DNA of 64,000 nt, taken from the NCBI GenBank assembly GCA_000004985.1, contig GG738845.1. One strand, 5' to 3'. Positions 2,888 to 35,107 of the stretch are shown one piece after another (within the stretch, counting starts at the first letter, position 1; each line of letters opens with the position of its first letter). The translations under genes and the position numbers were made by a program. Source of the DNA: Naegleria gruberi (taxonomy: Eukaryota). A model generated the notes under the pieces. That model was not told where the DNA came from and did not search any database. It was given only the letters and a program-made list of their open reading frames with translations.

Positions 2888-5800
2888 TCAGAAAACTCTT
2901 GTTGGAAAGTACGTGNNNNNNNNNNNNNNNNNNNNNNNNNNNNNNNNNNNNNNNNNNNNNNNNNNGTAAATTCTCAAGGTACTATTAAGAGATTGATCAC
3001 CTTCCATAGCAAACCATTGGCTTCTGTTCTGGTAGTCAATTTGAAATCTTCCAGTTATATGTCCACTATTAATCATTTGAACACTCATTCTGTAAACATC
3101 ACCAACCATCAAAGACCCAAAATTACAGGAATTTGGAAACACTTGAATATTACTCAGACCTGGTTGAGGAGAGGGTGATGATATGGTTTCTCTTGTAATT
3201 GAAGATTTTTGCATATCACTCCTAGATGGAAGTTTCTTTTCCATGGTTTTTTGAGGTTGGTTTGGTGTTTTCATGGAGGATGTTTTCACCTTGATTTTGG
3301 AAGGATCATGCAGAGATTTGTATTCATCATTTGGAACGGCTTCAGCAGTTTTGATGAATGATTTCTTGAACCAAACCGATTTGCTAACATTTTCCACAGA
3401 ATAAAAACTTGGATCTTGAGAGTTTCCTTTTCTAGTCGATTCGGTTTTGGTATCGTAATTGTCTCCTTCGTTGTGGACTGGTAAATAATTGGGTTCTATA
3501 TTTTCGTTCTCTGAATACTCTTCATTAGTTTCTACACTTGCCTCTTCATTGGATTGTTCTGGAAGGCTTTCATTCTTTTCCTTTTTTTCCTTCTTTGGAA
3601 TTCCTAACACCAACGTTTTCCAAACTTCTAAAGCTTCAGGTTCGTGCCAGTATTTAGGAGTATTGCTATTTTTCTTTTCCTGCTTGTACTCATTAATGTT
3701 TAGCCCTCTATCTTTTTCTATTTCATCTTTTTTAACCACTTGAATGACTGTAAAATCCTCAGGATTCTGTTCCTCCTCTATTGGTGCTTCCTTTTCAAAG
3801 ATGTTATTTTCGGAGAATATAGTTGTTAATTCATTCTTGATTTCTTCTTCCTTTTGCTTTTGGTCTTCACTCCTGATATCACCCTCTTCAGAATTTTCTT
3901 TTGAATATCCTTCTTTTCTTACTCTCCATTCTTTCCATCGATTGAATTTATCCCTTAATTTAGATCTATCATCTATTGACAGAGGTCTATACTTGTTGAA
4001 ATGCCTGTGATAGTATAGAGAAGGATCAGCCGTTTTCAGTCTGCCAAGAGGAATGACAGCTTTTGGTAGGGAGTAATAATTTTCGGGGCTTTCCAAATAT
4101 TTAGTTCCTTGATCGTATTTAGTATAGATATGAACAGAAGAAACACTTCTAAACTCTCCAACCATATCTTCAGAAATATTAATCTTCTCAGGATTCGATC
4201 TTGATGCATCAGTAAATGGCGCAATAAAGCTTTCTGGAAGATACTCAAAAGCATATGAACCTTTCATGGATAACTCAAAAAGTCGAGGTTGAATTAAGAA
4301 TTTGTGACTGTTGTCCTTTGGAATTTCTCCAATAACAGAAACAGGAGGTAATCCAATTTTGTTCTTTTTGAAATAATTGATAAGAGACTGAGAAAGTGCA
4401 TATGTTTCCATGTCTTCTTGAGTACCATCTGTTTCCTCAGCCGTGATACCATTTGACTCATCTTGTTCTGGTGGTATTGAGGAGCTCTTAGGTCTTTTAC
4501 TTCTGGAGACTTTTGGTGTACATGCTCTGCTTGCTTTTCTTTCTTCAATAAGCATTCTTTCGTTGTGAATATCCTTTTGATTTTTTTCACTTTCTTGATA
4601 GAATTTGATCATTGATCTACCTGTTCCTGTGACTACAAATTCATGGCCAACAATATCAATCATTTTCATTCCTCCATTCAAATAATCGAAAGAGTACATT
4701 CCAAAATAATACTTGGAGGACTTTTTTTGGAATCTTTCTTTGTTGATTGAGGTAAAGGATAAACTGGATGGCTCTAAATCAACAAAATTTTTTTCTAAAT
4801 CAATAGTAATCATATGACCTAGTTTGGAAAGGGTAAATTGCTTTCTGTCTCTGTAGGTAAATAAAGATTGGTCTGGAAGTTCATACAAAATCTTATCTTT
4901 GAGAATTTTAACACTTGCAAAACCGCTTCTTTCGATAAGGGTATAAAAATCATTAACATGAATAAACTCATCTTCATCTTCTTCGTCATCAACAAAAACT
5001 TGACCATGAACAACTGGACATCTCCAAATACGGAAGCCATCAGAATATTGAACCAGTTGAGAACTGTCACTGAAAATCACTTTCATAACTAAATCTTCTC
5101 TTACATGGACTTCTGCATCCTTCCATGCATCAACATTTTTAACATATTTAACAGTGTCTAAATTCAAAATAGTTCCATCTAATAGCTCTACACACCTTGC
5201 ACCTGTCGGGGCAGTCTTTAAGCATGAACCGTCAGAATTAAAGTGATGAATTTCGCTGCTTGGAAATAATGTTTGCGAAATATCCCCTTCAAATCTCCTT
5301 ATTATTGCTCCGTCTTTTGTTACAGTTAGAGAAAGCTCTCTTACAAGCTTCTTTTCAACTGTATCAGTAGTAGAGTTCCATATTTCAATTAATTCTTCTA
5401 CAGGATGTAAACTAATAGTCATCTTGTCAGTAGAATTTCTATCTAATCCTTTAAACCCAGTACCAAAAACCTTCTTCTTAGATTTTAATTGTGAGGGATA
5501 GAATTGATGGATAGATCCATCTTGCATTAAGCGTATTTGAAGGCCGTTATTGCAACTGAAGTCAACCTCTGTCGATTTAGCATCAACTTGGTCTTGTAAA
5601 AATGCTATTAGACTAGAATCATCCTCAAAAGAACAGGAAAAATATGACTTTCTTTTCAACATATTATGAGGATTATCCAAACTGTTAATGGTATTTTTAA
5701 ATCCAAAAACAAGCCCATCCTTTTCAACAGTACAAGAAATGCTCTTGTCTGTACAATATTCCGACTTTAGATAAATGATTGAACCATCACTTGGGTAAAG

Positions 5801-8182
5801 GTTGACTGTATCAATATAAATGTCTGCACCTTTGCCTTCAAATATATATCTTTCATTTTTAGGATCGAGAATGATATCATGAGGCACTTTTGGTAGATGT
5901 GGAAGGGGAAGTGCAAGAATATTTTGAATGGTTGAAGAGGTTTCCTGAGTATCTTTGTGATGATCTTCGTCTTCTGCTCCAAATTGAGACAATTTCTGTA
6001 TCCTTTTGTGACATTCATTATATTCCTTATCAAATTGAATTTTAAATTGATCTGAAAAATAGGTTTGATAGTTAGAAAACCACTCCAAAAAATACTCATT
6101 AAGGGAGAACCTTTTAAGCATGGAAATACGTTCGTATCTACAAGGCGGTACCTCATTGTAAAAAGCTAAAAGGACCGAATTATTCAACTCGTTATATTTT
6201 GAAATCAGGCTTGGCTTTTCAAATAATCCAATATATGAAATAACCTCAATCATTGTTTCAACATTAAAATGTTCTTCTACATTACGATCACCCAAGTCTA
6301 AATCAACTCCTTTCTCTCTTAGCATTTCCTCAAACTCCATCATTACTAATTCTTTGTCTACTTCTTCTCTAGAATATTTGTAAGGTCCATGAATATCCTC
6401 GTCCTTTCCAGAAAGGAAGTGATAAATTTCTGTTTTTATACTCACTCTCTCTTCTTCTGTTTCTATTGTAGCGGTTTGATTACTTAGCTCAGGAAATAAG
6501 TGAAGCATTCTAGTAACTTTTCTTTCAATGTCAATATTTGTTGTATCGTGATGTATTGGAATTGTGCAAAGAGCATGTTCTGATATTTTGGAGCCAAATG
6601 GTATTAATGACAAACCTCCCACCTTCTCCAAAGTATTTATGGCAGGTCTTTGCCTCTCTTTCAAATCAGATACTTCTAAAAAGTTTATGCTTGGGTTGAA
6701 AGCAGTGTGTAAAAGGTTAGTTAAGCTTTCTGTATAATCTTTGGTTAGTTTTTTATCATCTCCATTGGATGAGAGCTCATATTTATCTTCAACTGTTTTG
6801 ACCAGTTGTTCTATTAGACAATGAAGGATTACAGCTTCAGAACAGCAACTGTCTGGTATATTTTCGAGTAACTTGTTGTAATAACTCAAATCCAATATTG
6901 TATTTTCATCCGAAACATAAACTTGTTCAAGTTTTCCAATAGCTTTTTCGTAATCGTCATAACGATTCATAATTACTTGAGCATATTTTTCTAATGTGGA
7001 GAAAAATCTACCAACTTCTCTCTCTAAACTATCACCTGGATCAAATTTTGAGTTATCGTCATCATATGTATACTCAACGAAAGAATGATTGATTTGTAAA
7101 ATATTTCGAATAAATCCTGAAATATTTTCATCTCTCAATTTACAAGAATGTTCAATAATTTGGCAAAGTCTGGTATCTGGTTTAAAAGTAGATGTTGGTG
7201 TTGCTTGTGTTGATCCCTTCTTTTGAGAACCAGTTTTAGTAGCACTCTTGGGACGTTTTGCGTCAGTGCTTTTTGGACGTTTTTTCTTGTCACCAAGTCT
7301 TTGTGAAAGATCTTCGTCCATTATTGGGGGAGGACCTCTTTTCTTTTCTTTTCCCAACTTAACAACACAATCAAAGTTTACCCCACAATCCATTAATAAA
7401 TTAATATCTTCTTTTGTTGCTGGAAAATCTTTGAACAAAAAGTAGAGAATGGGCTCATTCTTAACAATAAAACCTTCTTCTCTTGGGGTGATTGCTGCAT
7501 TTTCGATAATTTGATTGGAAATTTCTTGTTCATTATTAATTATTGCTTGTTCGGAAGGTTTTTTGTTTTTGTCAAATTTTTCTTTTTCCTTTCTTTTTTC
7601 CTCCTCTTTCTTTTGTAAATCTACTTGCTTTTTCTTTTCATCTTCAGATTTCTTTTTTAAATAATCATCTATCTGGAAAGAAATAAACCTTTTGTAAATG
7701 AGCCCAATTAGCCTCTTTCTATCATTTTTTAGCTCTGAAAGTCTATTTTGTTTTGCTTGCTCCTCTGCTTCCGGATTTTTTGATGTTTTTGAGTTGCCCA
7801 TCAATTTTGTTTCTTCAGCCAAATTCTTTTCATATTCTGCATATTCTTCAAATTTTTGTATTTTGGCTCCTTGTATTACTTCATTATATATTAATACTCG
7901 GAATTTGCTGGTGTCGATGGATGAATGAATTGTGGTGAAATTTCCAAATATTGTTTCTAAAAGAGATTCCCTCTCCTCTGCCTCTAATTGTTGGATAGCA
8001 TCAGGAGATAAACTTTCATTCAGTGGAGTTACTGGAGTAGATGATGGAACTTTAAGTGTTTCCGAAGGTGTATTTTGATTTGTTGGTTCCTGAGAAACAA
8101 GAGGATAATCGGTATCCAAAAAATAAGAAAAGTAACGAAAATCCCTCTCGTAAGGTTTTTGGATATGTCTCATTATGATCAA
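2888..8182 (-). CDS. Giant 1764-aa protein, single exon as far as can be seen; K/E-rich central region and a C-terminal ASH/MSP (PapD-like) beta-sandwich motif. Possibly a ciliary protein such as SPAG17/PF6. The C-terminus crosses the N-gap, so the true stop is uncertain.
   Basis: 5.3-kb uninterrupted ORF. The C-terminal motif reads NIQVFPNSCNFGSLMVGDVYRMSVQMINSGHITGRFQI, which matches the ASH/MSP pattern. A-run before ATG. Confidence 0.6.
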   Translation of the reverse strand: MIIMRHIQKPYERDFRYFSYFLDTDYPLVSQEPTNQNTPSETLKVPSSTPVTPLNESLSPDAIQQLEAEERESLLETIFGNFTTIHSSIDTSKFRVLIYNEVIQGAKIQKFEEYAEYEKNLAEETKLMGNSKTSKNPEAEEQAKQNRLSELKNDRKRLIGLIYKRFISFQIDDYLKKKSEDEKKKQVDLQKKEEEKRKEKEKFDKNKKPSEQAIINNEQEISNQIIENAAITPREEGFIVKNEPILYFLFKDFPATKEDINLLMDCGVNFDCVVKLGKEKKRGPPPIMDEDLSQRLGDKKKRPKSTDAKRPKSATKTGSQKKGSTQATPTSTFKPDTRLCQIIEHSCKLRDENISGFIRNILQINHSFVEYTYDDDNSKFDPGDSLEREVGRFFSTLEKYAQVIMNRYDDYEKAIGKLEQVYVSDENTILDLSYYNKLLENIPDSCCSEAVILHCLIEQLVKTVEDKYELSSNGDDKKLTKDYTESLTNLLHTAFNPSINFLEVSDLKERQRPAINTLEKVGGLSLIPFGSKISEHALCTIPIHHDTTNIDIERKVTRMLHLFPELSNQTATIETEEERVSIKTEIYHFLSGKDEDIHGPYKYSREEVDKELVMMEFEEMLREKGVDLDLGDRNVEEHFNVETMIEVISYIGLFEKPSLISKYNELNNSVLLAFYNEVPPCRYERISMLKRFSLNEYFLEWFSNYQTYFSDQFKIQFDKEYNECHKRIQKLSQFGAEDEDHHKDTQETSSTIQNILALPLPHLPKVPHDIILDPKNERYIFEGKGADIYIDTVNLYPSDGSIIYLKSEYCTDKSISCTVEKDGLVFGFKNTINSLDNPHNMLKRKSYFSCSFEDDSSLIAFLQDQVDAKSTEVDFSCNNGLQIRLMQDGSIHQFYPSQLKSKKKVFGTGFKGLDRNSTDKMTISLHPVEELIEIWNSTTDTVEKKLVRELSLTVTKDGAIIRRFEGDISQTLFPSSEIHHFNSDGSCLKTAPTGARCVELLDGTILNLDTVKYVKNVDAWKDAEVHVREDLVMKVIFSDSSQLVQYSDGFRIWRCPVVHGQVFVDDEEDEDEFIHVNDFYTLIERSGFASVKILKDKILYELPDQSLFTYRDRKQFTLSKLGHMITIDLEKNFVDLEPSSLSFTSINKERFQKKSSKYYFGMYSFDYLNGGMKMIDIVGHEFVVTGTGRSMIKFYQESEKNQKDIHNERMLIEERKASRACTPKVSRSKRPKSSSIPPEQDESNGITAEETDGTQEDMETYALSQSLINYFKKNKIGLPPVSVIGEIPKDNSHKFLIQPRLFELSMKGSYAFEYLPESFIAPFTDASRSNPEKINISEDMVGEFRSVSSVHIYTKYDQGTKYLESPENYYSLPKAVIPLGRLKTADPSLYYHRHFNKYRPLSIDDRSKLRDKFNRWKEWRVRKEGYSKENSEEGDIRSEDQKQKEEEIKNELTTIFSENNIFEKEAPIEEEQNPEDFTVIQVVKKDEIEKDRGLNINEYKQEKKNSNTPKYWHEPEALEVWKTLVLGIPKKEKKEKNESLPEQSNEEASVETNEEYSENENIEPNYLPVHNEGDNYDTKTESTRKGNSQDPSFYSVENVSKSVWFKKSFIKTAEAVPNDEYKSLHDPSKIKVKTSSMKTPNQPQKTMEKKLPSRSDMQKSSITRETISSPSPQPGLSNIQVFPNSCNFGSLMVGDVYRMSVQMINSGHITGRFQIDYQNRSQWFAMEGDQSLNSTLRIYXXXXXXXXXXXXXXXXXTYFPTRVF
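2916..2965. other. Assembly gap (50 N) inside the 3' end of the 1764-aa gene
   Basis: Run of n characters in the sequence. Confidence 0.99.
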
Positions 8183-8259: not shown

Positions 8260-10581
8260 TTAGTAATTCATTTCCATCATGTATTTTCTGTCAGCCTCTC
8301 TGAATAAACTTCCTTCATTTGGGTAGGGATCTTTGGGAGGGGAATTATTTGTGAGTGTAGTTCTATTTTGTTTTGTTTTTTCTTCTGTTTTTCCTGTCCT
8401 ATATTTCCACCTTTTGATTCTTTCTCTTTCCTTTTCCATTTTAATTATTTGGTTTTTGAACCCCCAAATTCCCATATCATGAGTTTTCGCAAATATTTCA
8501 GCTTCTTTCAGCACCCTCATTTGTTGAGAAATGAATGGTTTGGAAATACTGGTCAAGTTATGCTCTTCAACTCTTGAATCTGACGAATCAAAGTGAAGTG
8601 CAGCTAACCCTTGTTCAACAACCCACTTATTAATCCATATTCTTTCAGGAAGGTCAATACTTAATATATCTTTTTTTATCATTTGGGTTGATTTAAGACA
8701 ATCATCTCCTTCAGAGACCAGCCAAACGTCACACGGAAGAGAGCTGTCCAAACTATTAATTTCCTTTCCAGTATTGTTTGATTTTGTAATAGCTATAGTG
8801 GTTGTTGGTATAAAAACTATTACCTGTTTCCCAATTAATTTGGTAGTAAGAGGGCCATAAGCGGTGGATGCTTTATTCTCACCATCAACAATAAAGGAAA
8901 TTTTGTCAAGATACAAATATATCATAATTGAAGCAGTATGCTCCGTTTCTTCATTGTGCTTACTCGCCCTTGAACGAGGTGAGTTCATCATTCTTGGAGA
9001 AAGAATAGGATCAGTAATTGGTTTTTTTTGGTATGATACAATAATATTCATTATTAAGCTAATAGGATCTATGAATACTACTTTCCCAGGAAGTGTTTTT
9101 CCTGAAAGATGGTCCATGAAAAATGTTCTTGGAGTTCTTGGAGAAATTAAATTGTGAGCAACATTATTAGAAACCTGGGAAGAGTTAATCATTGAGGAGT
9201 TTAAGGAGTTTAAGGATGGAACAACCTTAGCTAGTTTCTCTTTTGTTGTGCTGGAATTATCATTTCCTGTTGATTGAAAGGCTGACATGATAGCTTCCTC
9301 ATATGCCATTAAATGGCCCATTTTGTTTGAAAGAGATTCTGAAAGATCTCTCAATGTTGTGTTTCTCTTTTGAGAAAGAAGACCTTGCTCAGTCAATCGT
9401 AAAGCGTGGAAACTTTCCAACCTTTCGTTCCATCTTGTGAAAATTTTCTCTTTTTCCTCCTCTTCATCTTTATGGAATTTGCTTGAAGCTCCATCTCTAT
9501 ATGTTTCAAGAAAATTTTCTTCATTACCATCCTCAAGTTCCTTCATTAAATCTTGCATTGTTGGTGACCTTAACGATTCATCATCTATTCCTTTCCTTTT
9601 TTTAAGTTTGTTCAAAGCTGTCATCATTTTTTTTCTCAGTTCTACCCACTCCTTGCTTTTAGTATCAGAAACCTTGTTAGGAGAGAAACTGAAATTTGTT
9701 TTAGATGATGTACCCAACTCAAAATCAATTAATCTCTCCATCCACGCTTCTCCAAGAAGTAGTTTGTATTCATCATTAGTTAAAACAACAAGTCTATTGA
9801 AGGGTATTGACTCTTTTACATTGAAATAATGCAAAAAAACACCATCTTTAAATAAAACACTTATTACTGCTTCCTTTTCTTTACACTCTATCACCAAACC
9901 TACTTTAAGATTATTGGGTTTCACACTATCTAGAGAAACTTTTCCACAAGTGGGAGTAGTAAACAAGTTTCGTTGACTTAAACTAGGAAGGCTTGGTGGA
10001 GCTTTGCTTAATGTGTTTGCTTTAGCTCTAGAAAAAGCTACTGTCTTTTTTTCCTTTCCATTTGCATATATATCTGCTCTTCTCTGAAGAGATGAGTGAA
10101 GATACTCATCATATTCTCTTTGTTTTACATAATTTTCCATGCTTTTGTATTTTGGTCTTTTTGCTTGATGATCTGAACTGGATAAATCCAATTCATCATC
10201 AAATTCTGTTAGAAATGGCCCCTTAGAGGTGATTTCCTTCTCTCTATGAAACAATAACTTGTTTGAATTTTTGTATATTGGTGACAGGGACAGATTTTCT
10301 GAATAGTCACCGCTTTGTGCTAGTGATCTGTTCAGATAAGGTGCATTGTATTTTCGGAATGAATTACTTCTTTCTGTTAATGGTTTTTCATCAAAACCGT
10401 TATTACTGTCACTAGATGAAGGTCTTAAACTTTTTTCTAATTTCTTTGAATCCACAGCTTGTTGTATTTGTGAACTAATGTTTTTTTTTCTTAAATAAGT
10501 TGGGAGTGCATTTGGTTCAAAAGCCTCCAACAACACCATTACAAATTGTCCTTCCCTTGGTTTTGAACAGCCTAAATTCAT
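8260..10581 (-). CDS. 773-aa hypothetical protein with a C-terminal staphylococcal-nuclease-like (SNase/thermonuclease) domain
   Basis: Single ORF. The C-terminal segment (LPCDVWLVSEGD...LKEAEIFAKTHDMGIWGF) matches the SNase pattern (AE..AK...G.W). Confidence 0.6.
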   Translation of the reverse strand: MNLGCSKPREGQFVMVLLEAFEPNALPTYLRKKNISSQIQQAVDSKKLEKSLRPSSSDSNNGFDEKPLTERSNSFRKYNAPYLNRSLAQSGDYSENLSLSPIYKNSNKLLFHREKEITSKGPFLTEFDDELDLSSSDHQAKRPKYKSMENYVKQREYDEYLHSSLQRRADIYANGKEKKTVAFSRAKANTLSKAPPSLPSLSQRNLFTTPTCGKVSLDSVKPNNLKVGLVIECKEKEAVISVLFKDGVFLHYFNVKESIPFNRLVVLTNDEYKLLLGEAWMERLIDFELGTSSKTNFSFSPNKVSDTKSKEWVELRKKMMTALNKLKKRKGIDDESLRSPTMQDLMKELEDGNEENFLETYRDGASSKFHKDEEEEKEKIFTRWNERLESFHALRLTEQGLLSQKRNTTLRDLSESLSNKMGHLMAYEEAIMSAFQSTGNDNSSTTKEKLAKVVPSLNSLNSSMINSSQVSNNVAHNLISPRTPRTFFMDHLSGKTLPGKVVFIDPISLIMNIIVSYQKKPITDPILSPRMMNSPRSRASKHNEETEHTASIMIYLYLDKISFIVDGENKASTAYGPLTTKLIGKQVIVFIPTTTIAITKSNNTGKEINSLDSSLPCDVWLVSEGDDCLKSTQMIKKDILSIDLPERIWINKWVVEQGLAALHFDSSDSRVEEHNLTSISKPFISQQMRVLKEAEIFAKTHDMGIWGFKNQIIKMEKERERIKRWKYRTGKTEEKTKQNRTTLTNNSPPKDPYPNEGSLFREADRKYMMEMNY

Positions 10582-10653
10582 TTCTCCTCAATCCGTTAAG
10601 TCTCATAAGTCATGTATTTTTTTTTAGTTGAATACGTTTTGGCGGTTTATTGC

Positions 10654-10667
10654 GGGGGGGGAGATCT
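10654..10667. repeat. Left terminal inverted repeat GGGGGGGGAGATCT
   Basis: Perfect reverse complement of 11145-11158. Confidence 0.7.
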
Positions 10668-11144
10668 CCAGTCTATGGTCCACTCTATTCCTTATTAACA
10701 TATTAGTTCTCTACAGTTTTCTAACCACCTAAATATGAACCCTATTATTATTAGATTTATTAAAAAAAAATGTCACAACCTAATTACATGGTCAACCCAC
10801 ACATGTGATGGAATTGGTAGAATCAAATACTGATATACTAATTGTCTGCACTAAACCAATAAACAAACTTTCTCTTACTATAATGTCATTCTTATCAACG
10901 AAATTAAAATAAGTTTCCGAAGCTGAAAAGAATTGTTTAAAAGTAAACATGTGGTTAAACATATTGTTCATGTGATGTATCAAGAAAACTATCAACAAAT
11001 TAAATGAAATTATGTTTGTGAGCGGAGTAGTCAAACAACAACAATCCAATTTTTTAAATTATTTTTTTAATTACAAAAGCGTCACTGTAGAGACTAAAAA
11101 TGGTGTTCCCGCCACAGGCAGACCTCCAGTGGTTTGTCAGCACT

Positions 11145-11158
11145 AGATCTCCCCCCCC
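11145..11158. repeat. Right terminal inverted repeat AGATCTCCCCCCCC
   Basis: Perfect reverse complement of 10654-10667. Confidence 0.7.
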
Positions 11159-11209
11159 GTTTATTGATTACTCAGTTACATATCTTCAATCACAAACAAT
11201 CACAAAAAA

Positions 11210-12493
11210 ATGAGCAATGATGAAATAAACATTGAGGTGGAAGGATTTGATGGCAGTGTTGGTGGATCTTCAGAACAAATTGAAAAAAGAAAAGAAATAA
11301 TTGATGAAAGTGATGAGGATGAAGTTGATGATCCATTAAAACCTGAAATGAACGAAGATTCCCTTATAACCCTAGAAAATATTTATGAGGACAGGATGGT
11401 TTTTGATCCTTATGATAACATCCATGAAAACGGAAAGCTTAATTTTGCAACCAAAAACAACAAGAATTACCTTAAAATTTTCTCAATAACATGGAATATG
11501 ATGGGTCTATCTTCTCCAAATGAGGAATATTTACTTTCATTCATTCCAACAAATAATTATCATATCTATTGTTTTGCAACTCAAGAGTGTGAGAGATCTA
11601 TTGGAACTTCCGTAATCATTGAATCAAAAGCAAAATGGGAAAAGACACTTAACTCAATTATGGGAGATTCATATATTCAACTTGAAAGTTGTACATTAGT
11701 AGCAATACACTTGATAATATTTGTACGAAAGGAACTATTAACACAAATAAGCAATGTAAGAACTTGTAGTGTTCCTACTGGTTTATATAACCAAATTGGA
11801 AACAAGGGTGGGGTTTCGATTTCTTTCAAATTAGGAAAGCGAAAATTTGTTTTTATTAATAATCATCTCCCAGCTCACCAAGAAAATGTAAAAGAAAGAA
11901 ATGAAAGTGTAAAGAGAATTATTGATTCTATCGACTATGAAGGGAAAATTCAGCAACAACCCTCAAAAACAAAAGTGAATCCAGCGGTTTCACAATCCAA
12001 TTTTACTCTATTTAAACGAGCAGATAGACCAGACATTCTCAAAAAGAACAACTTTGTGTTTTATATGGGTGATTTAAATTATAGAATTAATGGAAATAGA
12101 AAAGTTGTAGATAAGGTCTTGAAAATGAATGATCTTAAAGTTCTTCAGCTAAATGATCAATTAATTCTTGAACGAAAAAAAGGAACAGTTGACCTAAAGC
12201 ATTTTTCTGAAGGAGAAATAATCTTCCCACCAACTTACAAATTTGAGAAAAATTCAAACCAATACGACCTCAGTAAGAAGCAGAGAATACCTGCTTGGAC
12301 TGATAGAATTCTCTTTAAACCTTCTAAAAAGGGTAAAATCCACCTTGTTGACTATAATTTTTTCCCACAAGTCAAATATTCTGATCACAGGCCGGTCTAT
12401 GCTTTATTTCTGGTTGATTGTCCAGGTGTAATCCTTGAAACCACAAGCCAAGAACCAAATGCTTCAACTTCTCAAGTTTGTTTGGTGCAATAA
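11210..12493 (+). CDS. Inositol polyphosphate 5-phosphatase (synaptojanin/OCRL-type catalytic domain)
   Basis: Family motifs are present: YMGDLNYRI, PAWTDRILF and SDHRPV. 427-aa single exon. Confidence 0.85.
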   Translation: MSNDEINIEVEGFDGSVGGSSEQIEKRKEIIDESDEDEVDDPLKPEMNEDSLITLENIYEDRMVFDPYDNIHENGKLNFATKNNKNYLKIFSITWNMMGLSSPNEEYLLSFIPTNNYHIYCFATQECERSIGTSVIIESKAKWEKTLNSIMGDSYIQLESCTLVAIHLIIFVRKELLTQISNVRTCSVPTGLYNQIGNKGGVSISFKLGKRKFVFINNHLPAHQENVKERNESVKRIIDSIDYEGKIQQQPSKTKVNPAVSQSNFTLFKRADRPDILKKNNFVFYMGDLNYRINGNRKVVDKVLKMNDLKVLQLNDQLILERKKGTVDLKHFSEGEIIFPPTYKFEKNSNQYDLSKKQRIPAWTDRILFKPSKKGKIHLVDYNFFPQVKYSDHRPVYALFLVDCPGVILETTSQEPNASTSQVCLVQ

Positions 12494-13303: not shown

Positions 13304-15581
13304 ATGTTGAATAACCATCTTCACGATCAAACCACTGGAACATCATCAAATCGTCTTCAATCGGAAGATAAAAAAAGGAAAAAGAAAGAAAAAGAAGCAA
13401 AAAAGAAGAAGCAAAAATATGAGGAAATTTTAAACGATCTAGATAATGAAGTAGCAAAAAAAGCCCAGGAAAAGCTTGTGAGTGATATTTTCAGTCAAAA
13501 GAAGGACGTTCAATTTGACCATTCAAATTTGGAATTAAAACCTGACCATAAACTCCGTCCAGTTTGGGTTTGTTCAGGTACTGATGGCAAATTTCATATT
13601 TTCATGGAGACCTTTTCACCAATTTATCAACAGGCTTATGATTTTCTTGTTGCTGTTGCTGAACCTGTTTCACGTCCTGAAAATCTACACGAATATGTAT
13701 TAACTGAATATTCTCTCTATGCAGCTGTCAGTATTGGTATGAACACCGAACAAATTATTCAAGTTTTGGAGAAGCTAAGTAAGGTTAAATTATCCGAAGC
13801 TCTCATCAATTTTATTAGAGATGTAACAAGAAAATATGGTAATGTAAAATTAGTTCTGCAGAAAAATAGATTTTTCGTAGAGTCACCCCATTTGACTATC
13901 ATGGAAAAGTTATATGAAGATAAAATCATTAGTGCAGCTGCTATTGTTCCTGATCCAAATGAGTTTCCAAATGTTGATAGATCCAAAAGATTTATTATTA
14001 GAACACGATCAAAACAAAATGAATTGGAAAAGTTTCAAAAGCAAGCTCTTGCTAATACATCAACTGTAAATAAGGGATCTAAAATTCAAACTGAAATGAT
14101 AAGAGCTGTAAATCAAATTGGAGATGATGAAGATGATGATGCTGATGATGATTTTGATATTTCTTCAGCAGTTGAAACGTTTTATTTATTCGAAATTAAT
14201 CCAACAGAGGTTGAACATGTGAAAAAGCAATGCATTCAGATNNNNNNNNNNNNNNNNNNNNNNNNNNNNNNNNNNNNNNNNNNNNNNNNNNAGTCAGTGT
14301 ATTGAATGGAAGAATCAATTTAAATTATGGAGTACTATTGATGAGAATCGTGTAGTAGTATTTACTTCTCAGGAGAAGGATGCTTTACCAAAAGATGATG
14401 ATCCCTTAATCATCATTACAACATACACTATGATTACCCATACCAGAAAGAGAAGTGGTGAGGCAAAGGAGGTTATGGATTACATTCAAAGTAGAGAATG
14501 GGGATTATTAATTTTAGATGAGGTCCACGTCGTTCCCGCCAACATGTTTAGACATGTTGCGAGTGTAAAGTCTCATTGTAAATTAGGATTGACAGCCACT
14601 CTTTTACGTGAAGATAACAAGACAGACGATTTATATTTTTTAATTGGTCCAAAATTATATGAAGCTAATTGGCTTGATTTACAACAAAAAGGCCATCTTG
14701 CTAATGTGCAATGTGTGGAAGTTTGGTGTCCCATGACTGCCGAGTTTTTTGCTGAATACTTAACAGCCAATGCTAAGAAAAAGACTTTACTTTATGTTAT
14801 GAATCCAAATAAGTTTAGAGCTTGTGAATTTCTGATTAGATACCATGAAAAGCAAGGAGACAAAATCATTGTTTTTAGTGACAATGTTTTTGCTCTCCAA
14901 GAATATGCTGAAAAGTTGGGGGTACCCTACATTTTTGGTAATACCAAACAACAAGAACGTGTTTATTATTTGAACCAGTTCAGAAATACTAACCATTATA
15001 ACACTATTTTCATCAGTAAGGTTGGTGATACAGCAATTGACATTCCTGAGGCAACTGTGATTATTCAAATATCATCTCATTTTGGTAGTAGAAGACAGGA
15101 GGCTCAACGTTTGGGTCGTATCCTTCGTCCAAAAGGTGGTGGACTTAAAAATCAACAGGCCTACTTTTACACACTAGTTTCTCAAGATACACAAGAAATG
15201 TTCTTCTCCACAAAGAGACAACAATTTTTAATTAATCAAGGCTACAGCTTTAGAGTCTTGCCTGATATTCAAAAGTATTACAGGCAAGGTGCTAATGAAA
15301 TGGGTCTAACTCTCAAACACATGAATACCAAGAAGGAAGAATTAGACATGTTGGCTATTGTAAAAAAGGCTGAAGATGCAAGAGGCCAAGAAGAAAAGAT
15401 CAACGTTGATGATGAAGTTGAAAAATCATCTAGTAGTCTTGCTTCAATCTCTGGTGGAAATGAAATTTATTACCATTCCTATGAAGCTTCTACAACAACT
15501 TCCAGAAGAAGAGGTAAAGCTACCAAAGTTCCTTCTACTGTGCATCCACTTTTCAAAACCAGAACCCAACACAAGGATTAA
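13304..15581 (+). CDS. XPB: TFIIH helicase subunit XPB/ERCC3/SSL2. An assembly gap at 14241-14291 interrupts the helicase core; the gene appears otherwise intronless.
   Basis: Track ORFs 13304..14305 and 14430..15581 both carry XPB-specific blocks (for example [21 protein letters not shown] and [19 protein letters not shown]...[11 protein letters not shown]). Confidence 0.9.
14241..14291. other. Assembly gap (51 N) inside XPB
   Basis: Run of n characters. Confidence 0.99.
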
Positions 15582-32701: not shown

Positions 32702-35107
32702 ATGAGCTTAAATTCACCAACCTCCCTGCAACATACCTCTTCTGTTGCAGCTATCAACGAGATCATAGAGGAATTTATTACCTGTACTTGGGAAACTCTT
32801 CCTAATGATGTGAGAGAGGTGCTAGGAGGAAATAAACAAATGTTTGAAAAAATCTTGAAAGATTATGCTATGGAAAGACAAATACCATATGAACAAGCTC
32901 CTGTACAATTATTGTTGATGAGTAAGAGAGATTATTATTTGGAGATGGTAGAATATTTGAGAAATAATTTGAGAGTAAGTTCTTGATCACGTGTTATATT
33001 TTTGATCACATAATCTTTCTTCGGGATGAATAGTTATTTCCATACCAATTTTCTGATGTTGTCATCAACGAGTTGGGTATTTTACCATTTAGTTTTTATA
33101 TTGAAATGGTATTTACAATTATGAAGAATGAAAAATCGTACGATATTCTTCCTAATTTTACAGCTGCAGATGTAAATAGATTATTGGGAATTGGAAGAAA
33201 TCAATATATTGATATTATGAACAAAGTTAGAAGTAAAAAATGGACTTGGAGATTCAATAAGAATATTATAAGAGAACAATTACCTTTACAACCAATTGAT
33301 ACAAAAATAGACTATTGGTGGATTGTTGATTGTTTTCCAATGCCTCAACAAGAATTTCTAAAAATTTATAATGTGAGTTTAGTTTTAACATTGATCATTA
33401 ATCATTCTCATTATCAATAACAGACACTCACCACTGATGAGGCTATTGCAGTAGCTATGGTAAAAAATGAAGGTAAAATTCTAGCTTGTAGAATTTCCTA
33501 TCCAGAGCTAATATCAATTTACAAGAAAGGTCTAGTACATTTTCATGTACCTATCAATAGCGATGATTATATAGTAATACCACCTTTGAAGGGATTTATT
33601 ATGAATAGAACGCCAAATGATCATTTTGAAAAGTTACTTTATGATATCCTTGTTACATTGGATGAAAGAACTACAGTTGGACAGTTAGCTAATATTTTAC
33701 AAGTAGATGAAAATATCATTAAATCTGCAGTCTCTGTGTGCTGTAGATTAGGGTTTGCTAAAAAAAGAGTGGCTAAACCAAAGAATCTATCTGAAACAAG
33801 TGAAGATCAATATAAAAATATTTGGCAACCCTTCATAGATGAATACCACGAAGAGCTAGTCAAGGATGAATCCAATGCCACAAGTGAAAAATTATCAACA
33901 GAAAATAATGCTATTATTAATTTTACATCAAGTTTTGAGAATGGTGGTGAAAAAAAAAAGAGAATTGGATTCTTATTCGACTCATCCCTCACAGCATATT
34001 TAATGATGGGTAATTTAGCAGAAGGATTAAAAAATCATGCTGTAACACTCTTTGAAGTTGGAAAAATGCAAGATGAATTATTAGATGAATTTTTGAGGGA
34101 ATTGGATAAAGTAGTTTGTCCAACTGATAATGAAGGAGAAGCACTTAAATACTATACTCATGCAATTGCCTTAAGAAACACTTTGAGATTTTTGAGACAC
34201 AATCAAAACTTTGCCATGTCAGGATCTGATGGAGGTGTGGATATGTTAAGATGTGAGAGTTTGAATAATTTAGACCAAGGTACAAAAATGCGTATTATTG
34301 AAATGAATTATTCTATTCTGATAGCCACAGCTCCAATCGCTTCAAGGGCAATTAGTTTACCAAATTGTATTCCTAACTTTTATGGACCTCCAATTCCTCA
34401 TGTTTCTTCTCCATGGTTCAAAATTTATGTATATACTTGTTGTGAAATGGGACCTCCATCAGTACTTTTTGTAAAAGGACAACGTATCAAAAAATTACCA
34501 AATATGATTGAAAATAACGAAAAAATAATGATTTCTGGATGGGAACAAGAACCTTATGCTGTACATNNNNNNNNNNNNNNNNNNNNNNNNNNNNNNNNNN
34601 NNNNNNNNNNNNNNNNNNNNNNNNNNNNNNNNNNNNNNNNNNNNNNNNNNNNNNNNNNNNNNNNNNNNNNNNNNNNNNNNNNNNNNNNNNNNNNNNNNNN
34701 NNNNNNNNNNNNNNNNNNNNNNNNNNNNNNNNNNNNNNNNNNNNNNNNNNNNNNNNNNNNNNNNNNNNNNNNNNNNNNNNNNNNNNNNNNNNNNNNNNNN
34801 NNNNNNNNNNNNNNNNNNNNNNNNNNNNNNNNNNNNNNNNNNNNNNNNNNNNNNNNNNNNNNNNNNNNNNNNNNNNNNNNNNNNNNNNNNNNNNCAAAGA
34901 GTTTGTGATGTAGTTATTAAGAGAAACCTATTTAATGAGGAAAATTTGAAGAATCATACAACACAAATGAAATTAATGTGTGATGAATTTATGCAGTTTA
35001 TCCAAAGCAACTCTGATGATACATGCATATCAGATCAAACACAAGTACCTTATCCTTCAAAACCTGTATTCTTTGATGGTACTTCTTTGAAACAATATAG
35101 ATTTTAA
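32702..35107 (+). CDS. FAM91A1: FAM91 family protein (FAM91A1 ortholog, a WDR11-complex partner). Exons are 32702-32974, 33034-33372 and 33424 onward; introns are 32975-33033 (59 nt) and 33373-33423 (51 nt, GTGAGT). A 328-nt assembly gap sits inside the last exon region.
   Basis: Colinear matches to FAM91A1: NEKSYDILPNFTAADVNRLLGIGRNQYIDIMN; KKGLVHFHVPINSDDYIVIPPLKGFIMNR; RIGFLFDSSLTAYLMMGNLAEGLKNHAVTLFEVGKMQDE; and the C-terminal VPYPSKPVFFDG. Confidence 0.8.
34567..34894. other. Assembly gap (328 N) inside the FAM91 gene
   Basis: Run of n characters. Confidence 0.99.

Follow-up and report, generated by a model that had tools for sequence, protein, structure and literature searches.

A spacer between two divergently transcribed genes of Naegleria gruberi contains a non-coding segment of approximately 506 bp that is bounded by G-rich, perfectly inverted ends and by a duplicated flanking sequence. 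The spacer lies on contig GG738845.1 (assembly GCA_000004985.1), within a stretch of 64,000 nucleotides that was analysed as a whole and is referred to here as the window. The structure is real and non-random. Reading from the sequence of the locus, we consider that it probably arose by the recent insertion of a small, non-autonomous DNA transposon of the terminal inverted repeat (TIR) class, similar to a MITE (miniature inverted-repeat transposable element), into a bidirectional promoter of 114 bp. One insertion event would account at once for the compositionally atypical perfect inverted repeat, the direct repeat that abuts it, the non-coding interior and the inflated spacer. As the most economical explanation is a TIR insertion into a short bidirectional promoter, we retain the MITE-like reading proposed in an initial annotation of this DNA, but drop the hAT or P-type label that accompanied it.

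At the left junction, the 8-mer GTTTATTG (10645-10652) is followed by a single C (10653), a run of eight G residues (GGGGGGGG, 10654-10661) and the hexamer AGATCT (10662-10667). At the right junction the order is AGATCT (11145-11150), eight C residues (CCCCCCCC, 11151-11158) and a second GTTTATTG (11159-11166), which overlaps the inverted repeat by one base. Both a direct reading of the sequence and a repeat finder gave a perfect inverted repeat of 15 nt, CGGGGGGGGAGATCT at 10653-10667 and AGATCTCCCCCCCCG at 11145-11159, whose outermost G doubles as the first base of the right GTTTATTG copy. The initial annotation had described perfect inverted repeats of 14 bp and a target duplication of 8 bp. 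The inverted repeat is indeed perfect, but one nucleotide longer, the extra C at the left having been overlooked, and GTTTATTG does adjoin both ends, although the duplication can be read at more than one length. The additional C between the left GTTTATTG and the G run allows three readings of the boundary: a TIR of 15 nt with a 7-bp duplication, TTTATTG, and no spacer between the duplication and the ends; a TIR of 14 nt with an 8-bp duplication and one additional C at the left; or a TIR of 14 nt with a 9-bp duplication at 8/9 identity (GTTTATTGC and GTTTATTGA). The element extends from 10653 to either 11158 or 11159, and its end sequences are CGGGGGGGGAGATCTCCAGTC and CGGGGGGGGAGATCTAGTGCTGAC. 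Its parts, and the repeats that flank it, are as follows.

10645-10652, no strand: left direct repeat GTTTATTG, first copy of the putative target-site duplication (10646-10652 in the 7-bp reading, 10645-10653 in the 9-bp reading)
10653-10667, plus strand: left TIR CGGGGGGGGAGATCT, consisting of C, G8 and the BglII-type palindrome AGATCT
10668-11144, no strand: interior of 477 bp, 31% GC, without a credible open reading frame (ORF)
10703-10717, plus strand: left subterminal inverted motif TTAGTTCTCTACAGT, lying 50-64 nt in from the left end and pairing with 11084-11097
11084-11097, minus strand: right subterminal inverted motif ACTGTAGAGACTAA, lying 62-75 nt in from the right end
11145-11159, minus strand: right TIR AGATCTCCCCCCCCG, the perfect complement of 10653-10667
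11159-11166, no strand: right direct repeat GTTTATTG, second copy of the putative target-site duplication

These features were compared with shuffles of the window, in which inverted repeats were searched for within 3 kb. In length alone the inverted repeat is ordinary: in 98 of 100 shuffles a perfect inverted repeat reaches 14 nt or more, and these are always AT-rich. It is composition, not length, that makes the arm exceptional. It carries 35.0 bits, compared with a shuffle maximum that averages 27.6 ± 1.8 and reaches 34.2 at most. When the abutting duplication is scored with it, the total rises to 47.0 bits (shuffle maximum 30.6 ± 1.9 on average, 38.6 at the largest), a value that none of 200 shuffles equalled. 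The ends of the element are the sole runs of at least seven G or C in the window, which has 32% GC, and among its inverted repeats of 11 nt or longer they form the sole one that a duplication of at least 5 bp abuts. Allowing up to two mismatches, the 14-mer matches just two sites in the window, both of them element ends, where 0.09 matches would be expected. Scans of the window likewise gave no transposase and no other candidate that combines an inverted repeat with a duplication, in agreement with the earlier claim that this is the only mobile-element signature present. Beyond the 15-nt ends, only the weak inverted motif TTAG(T)TCTCTACAG is common to both termini, some 50-75 nt in. This subterminal similarity has a local score of 28, compared with 20.6 ± 3.6 in shuffles, and was equalled by 25 of 500 shuffles.

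The arithmetic of the spacer points the same way as the insertion that we propose. The spacer is 628 bp long and lies between start codons at 10581 (minus strand) and 11210 (plus strand); subtraction of the segment and one copy of the repeat leaves 114 bp. This is close to the 120 bp or so first estimated, and it is broadly like the other divergent ORF pairs of the window, which are ~19, <100, 91 and no more than 377 bp apart. The surroundings, initially described as above 80% AT, measure 31-34% GC, and the interior 31% GC.

The interior has no credible coding capacity, its longest ORF being a frame of 85 aa with a TTG start on the minus strand (10792-11049). A concatenated six-frame translation of the segment gave no match at E≤1 among 5.8 billion proteins. 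It follows that the interior is without a transposase remnant or an organellar coding fragment, and that no annotated gene model overlaps a further copy; a coding remnant, a coding insert of mitochondrial derivation and copies hidden within gene models were all ruled out on this result. Rfam gave two matches at E≤1, both at chance level and both outside the element, and no transfer RNA was found, on which grounds a non-coding RNA gene was rejected. A distant-mode BLASTN search of phages, plasmids and every complete Escherichia coli genome returned no match to the segment, and engineered or vector DNA, the phage 434 imm region and an insertion sequence from a cloning host were rejected accordingly. 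We also considered a 5′ intron or introner running from GT at 10645 to AG at 11146. If splicing starts from the small ATG that lies upstream at 10612, the frame meets a stop after 7 codons, and this candidate was rejected as coding.

If the segment is a transposon, a transposase encoded elsewhere in the genome would have bound the 14-15-nt ends, (C)GGGGGGGGAGATCT, and excised the element. The element would then have been joined to the target, ...GGCG/GTTTATTG/ATTAC..., at a cut with a stagger of 7-9 bp. Gap repair would have left (G)TTTATTG duplicated at both sides. Because both the ends and the duplication are perfect, the insertion would be young, and the source of the transposase would have been active recently. 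Each of the flanking genes would have been left with just 43-63 nt of native upstream DNA; either these 43-63-nt stretches suffice as core promoters, or the element may now provide upstream promoter sequence.

To place the spacer in a wider context, the locus was compared with those of N. lovaniensis (PYSW02000040.1, coordinates prefixed L001), N. fowleri (L002) and Willaertia magna (JBEGDK010000002.1, L003). An Rpb7-like gene downstream is syntenic in all three. Synteny breaks exactly at the spacer (10582-11209), the upstream neighbour being different in all four species. The orthologous spacers measure 890 bp in N. lovaniensis, 1154 bp in N. fowleri and 558 bp in W. magna, and they are mutually unalignable, the pair N. 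lovaniensis and N. fowleri included. Since the upstream gene differs and the spacers cannot be aligned, an empty site cannot be defined from these relatives.

Several observations weigh against the proposed transposon. MITEs are defined as families, and this element is known from a single copy. No second copy was found in the window with two mismatches allowed in the 14-mer, and none in the ~40 kb of locus sequence from the three relatives. Both ends separated by a gap of 462-492 nt, or a 20-mer from the left end, gave 0 matches in JGI metagenomes and prokaryote genomes; the gapped two-end pattern, an 18-mer from the left end and a 23-mer from the right end gave 0 matches in viral contigs. There is no transposase partner among the genes of the window, the similarity between the two ends of the element stops at 15 nt, and to our knowledge its termini match no superfamily consensus. 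No empty site was seen in the three relatives, with their unalignable spacers.

To these must be added a motif in the orthologous spacer of W. magna, GTTTATTG-N9-AGATCT (L003:5736-5758), which has the same 8-mer, spacing and hexamer as the left junction of the element. This AGATCT is the only one in the 13.1-kb locus and lies in a 14-nt palindrome, ACCTAGATCTAGGT (motif region L003:5736-5767). The nominal probability of such a motif arising by chance is 1e-5 to 1e-4, a post hoc estimate. It has no right-hand partner, and the spacer leaves too little room for an element body. The closer relatives N. lovaniensis and N. fowleri are without GTTTATTG-N9-AGATCT; GTTTATTG itself has a single occurrence in the N. 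fowleri spacer and a single one in that of W. magna. The recurrence is probably a coincidence; it is, all the same, the one datum that a simple transposon reading, with random insertion by a DDE transposase, does not predict.

The element can be set beside known transposon groups. It is like MITEs in its length of ~506 bp, its non-coding interior, its perfect short TIRs, the duplication that abuts them and its insertion beside gene starts. It is unlike them in its ends of G8 and palindromic AGATCT, which come from no described family known to us, and in a duplication that is ambiguous between 7 and 9 bp. The initial annotation took an 8-bp duplication to be typical of hAT or P-type transposons. 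The termini of hAT elements follow YARNG, and autonomous hAT copies encode a transposase with a dimerisation domain. P elements have termini that start with CA, make a 7-8-bp duplication and encode a THAP-domain transposase. The short TIR is a hAT-like feature, as an 8-bp duplication would be (lengths of 7 and 9 bp are equally possible), but the termini (CGGGG or GGGGG) do not follow YARNG, the Ac-type target pattern nTnnnnAn is not matched by GTTTATTG, and the 8-bp reading needs the additional C. The Buster-type target preference is nnnTAnnn, to which the TA at positions 4-5 of GTTTATTG does conform. With P elements the length of the duplication is compatible, but the termini, which do not start with CA, are not. 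As the reading of the duplication varies between 7, 8 and 9 bp and the termini fit neither consensus, assignment to hAT or P does not hold.

Neither is a better lead than a Mutator-like parent that makes a 9-bp duplication. G-rich termini are common in Mutator-like elements (MULEs), whose duplications measure about 9 bp (range 8-11), and the 9-bp reading (GTTTATTGC and GTTTATTGA, 8/9) would agree with this group if one mismatch is assumed. MULE TIRs, however, are usually at least 100 bp long, compared with 15 perfect nt and weak subterminal similarity in the present element. A full-length MuDRF (Mutator) element with 9-bp duplications has been reported in N. gruberi (PMC3164196), one of the DNA transposons described from this species (PMC3164196, PMC12344493). 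Repeats are few, at 5.1% of the genome (PMC6125883), and classification succeeds for no more than a small part of those in N. gruberi (PMC12344493).

The transposable elements of Naegleria and of other Heterolobosea are poorly catalogued. Should further copies of the element exist, they would amount to a small, new family, marked out by homopolymeric G8 termini of an unusual kind, and the perfect ends would speak for recent transposase activity; should it prove to be a single copy, it would be a minor curiosity. If the proposed insertion is correct, the locus offers a clean natural case in which a bidirectional promoter of 114 bp has been split. This would be useful for mapping minimal promoters in N. 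gruberi, for which there are few genetic tools.

Four other origins for the structure were weighed against a transposon insertion. The segment might be a unique, non-mobile structured spacer, in which the arms pair as a GC-rich stem of 15 bp (a cruciform or an RNA hairpin) and close a loop of 477 nt. The loop would then be part of the promoter or of an unannotated non-coding RNA gene, and GTTTATTG at either flank would be a regulatory motif present in repeated copies. Folded as single-stranded DNA, the segment is more stable than its shuffles (z = -3.1), essentially because of the terminal GC stem. GTTTATTG or its complement is found three times in the N. gruberi spacer and once each in those of N. 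fowleri and W. magna, and the W. magna GTTTATTG-N9-AGATCT runs into the 14-nt palindrome described above. We nevertheless regard this explanation as unlikely. There is no Rfam family at E≤1 and no alignable conservation of the spacer in any of the three relatives, and 628 bp is atypically long among the divergent pairs of the window. Moreover, a direct repeat that exactly abuts a perfect inverted repeat is the product of a staggered-cut insertion, and would otherwise call for several coincidences. An assembly or cloning artefact, in which homopolymer G and C tails next to a BglII site would reflect synthetic tailing, linker DNA or a chimeric clone, is very unlikely indeed. G8 and AGATCT at one end and AGATCT and C8 at the other do look engineered, and the assembly is a draft with gaps of N (2916-2965, 50; 14242-14291, 50; 34567-34894, 328). 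All of these gaps are more than 3 kb from the element, though, which lies in contiguous sequence and should be short enough for single Sanger reads to span. An artefact would not generate a host sequence duplicated over 8 bp, the composition of the interior is host-like at 31% GC, no match was found to E. coli, plasmid or phage DNA, and neither 14-mer occurs in the literature searched.

Site-specific recombination would instead make the ends and the flank two halves of a site resembling lox, FRT or att, with the apparent duplication as their common core. The circular form would read AGATCTCCCCCCCCG-TTTATTG-CGGGGGGGGAGATCT, and an enzyme of the tyrosine recombinase type, encoded elsewhere, would integrate the circle at a genomic TTTATTG. 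Once circularised, the element does present 15-nt inverted arms around an asymmetric, AT-rich spacer of 7-8 nt (7 nt as the core TTTATTG), like loxP, FRT, the lambda att core and Cryptons. Every circularised element with TIRs and a duplication looks alike, however, so this geometry is uninformative. In contrast to true tyrosine recombinase core sites, no recombinase, second site or target arm similarity was found for the element, the genomic arms beside the core agreeing with the element arms at only 4 of 15 positions. The eukaryotic Cryptons known to us are without inverted ends, which also counts against this origin. In its favour are reports of degenerate DIRS-like sequences, which encode a tyrosine recombinase, from N. 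gruberi (PMC3266345) and of DIRS elements from N. lovaniensis (PMC6125883). The W. magna spacer, with the same 8-mer, 9-nt spacing and AGATCT, looks as if it held a recognised core-plus-arm motif, but again one with neither a right-hand partner nor room for the body of an element. On balance we find such an origin improbable, and slightly more so in the form of a small lox/att-like element of Heterolobosea that integrates site-specifically and for which the W. magna recurrence is the recognised core-plus-arm motif. No better a prospect than site-specific recombination in general is an origin by two steps or by repair, the two taken jointly. In the former, a perfect palindrome, CG8-AGATCT-C8G, would have been split later by a central insertion of 475-477 bp that duplicated AGATCT(CC); in the latter, a linear DNA with inverted ends would have been captured at a staggered double-strand break. 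The two-step version draws on AGATCTCC, itself an 8-bp direct repeat (10662-10669 and 11145-11152), and on the unbroken AGATCT-centred palindrome that W. magna has at the same offset from GTTTATTG. The direct repeat of AGATCT is mostly automatic, though, because the palindromic hexamer sits within an inverted repeat. Inverted ends are missing from the inner segment itself (a match of 3 nt only), and both the outer TTTATTG repeat (12 bits) and a perfect 24-nt palindrome in DNA of 32% GC would stay unexplained.

The flanking 8-mer is not confined to the junctions. A third, inverted copy, CAATAAAC, lies inside the element at 10857-10864, and the two strands of the window hold 8 occurrences of GTTTATTG, 3 of them within the 628-bp spacer (10645, 10857 and 11159). 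Around the internal copy, a string of 14 nt, AATAAACAAACTTT, is identical in the N. lovaniensis spacer (L001:5711-5724).

That spacer holds an inverted-repeat-bounded segment of its own. Upstream of the 5-phosphatase orthologue, a non-coding segment of ~493 bp (L001:5371-5863) is bounded by arms of 52 nt (5369-5420 and 5815-5866) that are 87% complementary, and it is abutted at both ends (5362-5370 and 5864-5872) by a 9-bp direct repeat, TCATCATTG. The arm motif recurs in a third, partial copy at 5675-5702. The segment has the look of a MITE-like insertion that duplicated 9 bp, and suggests that such insertions do land in Naegleria promoters. It resembles the N. gruberi element in its size, its lack of coding sequence, its inverted ends, the abutting repeat and its position beside the same orthologous gene. 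The two are nonetheless unrelated in sequence (best common stretch 14 nt), and the N. lovaniensis segment has imperfect arms of ~50 nt (87-92%) and no G run. The N. fowleri spacer yielded no inverted repeat of this kind. Approximately 4 kb downstream of the N. lovaniensis orthologue is a gene for a 293-aa DDE_Tnp_4 transposase of the PIF/Harbinger type (L001:11820-12701); a search with this protein returned four proteins, namely itself and three relatives from ENA metagenomes with 53-55% identity.

In N. lovaniensis and N. fowleri the 5-phosphatase orthologues are extended at the N-terminus by ~100 aa (MPSSNNSVVPLPLSMASERD...), a stretch that is missing in N. gruberi and W. magna. Truncation of the N. 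gruberi N-terminus by the insertion was considered and rejected, as the outgroup W. magna is also short and no trace of the extension was seen upstream in the window.

The window is densely filled with housekeeping genes, and the spacer is flanked by the following two.

8260-10581, minus strand: left neighbour, an ORF of 773 aa with a start codon that finishes at 10581, which leaves 63 nt to the left repeat
11210-12493, plus strand: right neighbour, an inositol-polyphosphate 5-phosphatase-type gene (NAEGRDRAFT_61180), whose ATG lies 43 nt past the right repeat

The left neighbour had been annotated as an SNase-domain protein. This finds no support, as the ORF has no Pfam match even at E≤5 and none among the sequences of solved structures; the exact 773-aa product was not found in the protein collection either. 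On the same minus strand, 77 bp away, is an ORF of 1764 aa (2888-8182) with no significant Pfam match, and the two ORFs together may form one large gene with an intron. The inositol 5-phosphatase named as the right neighbour was confirmed: the 427-aa product of 11210-12493 is 100% identical to XP_002683054.1 and matches PF22669 (E=1e-71). XP_002683054.1 is encoded on a scaffold of 1.56 Mb, and its protein cluster consists of a single member.

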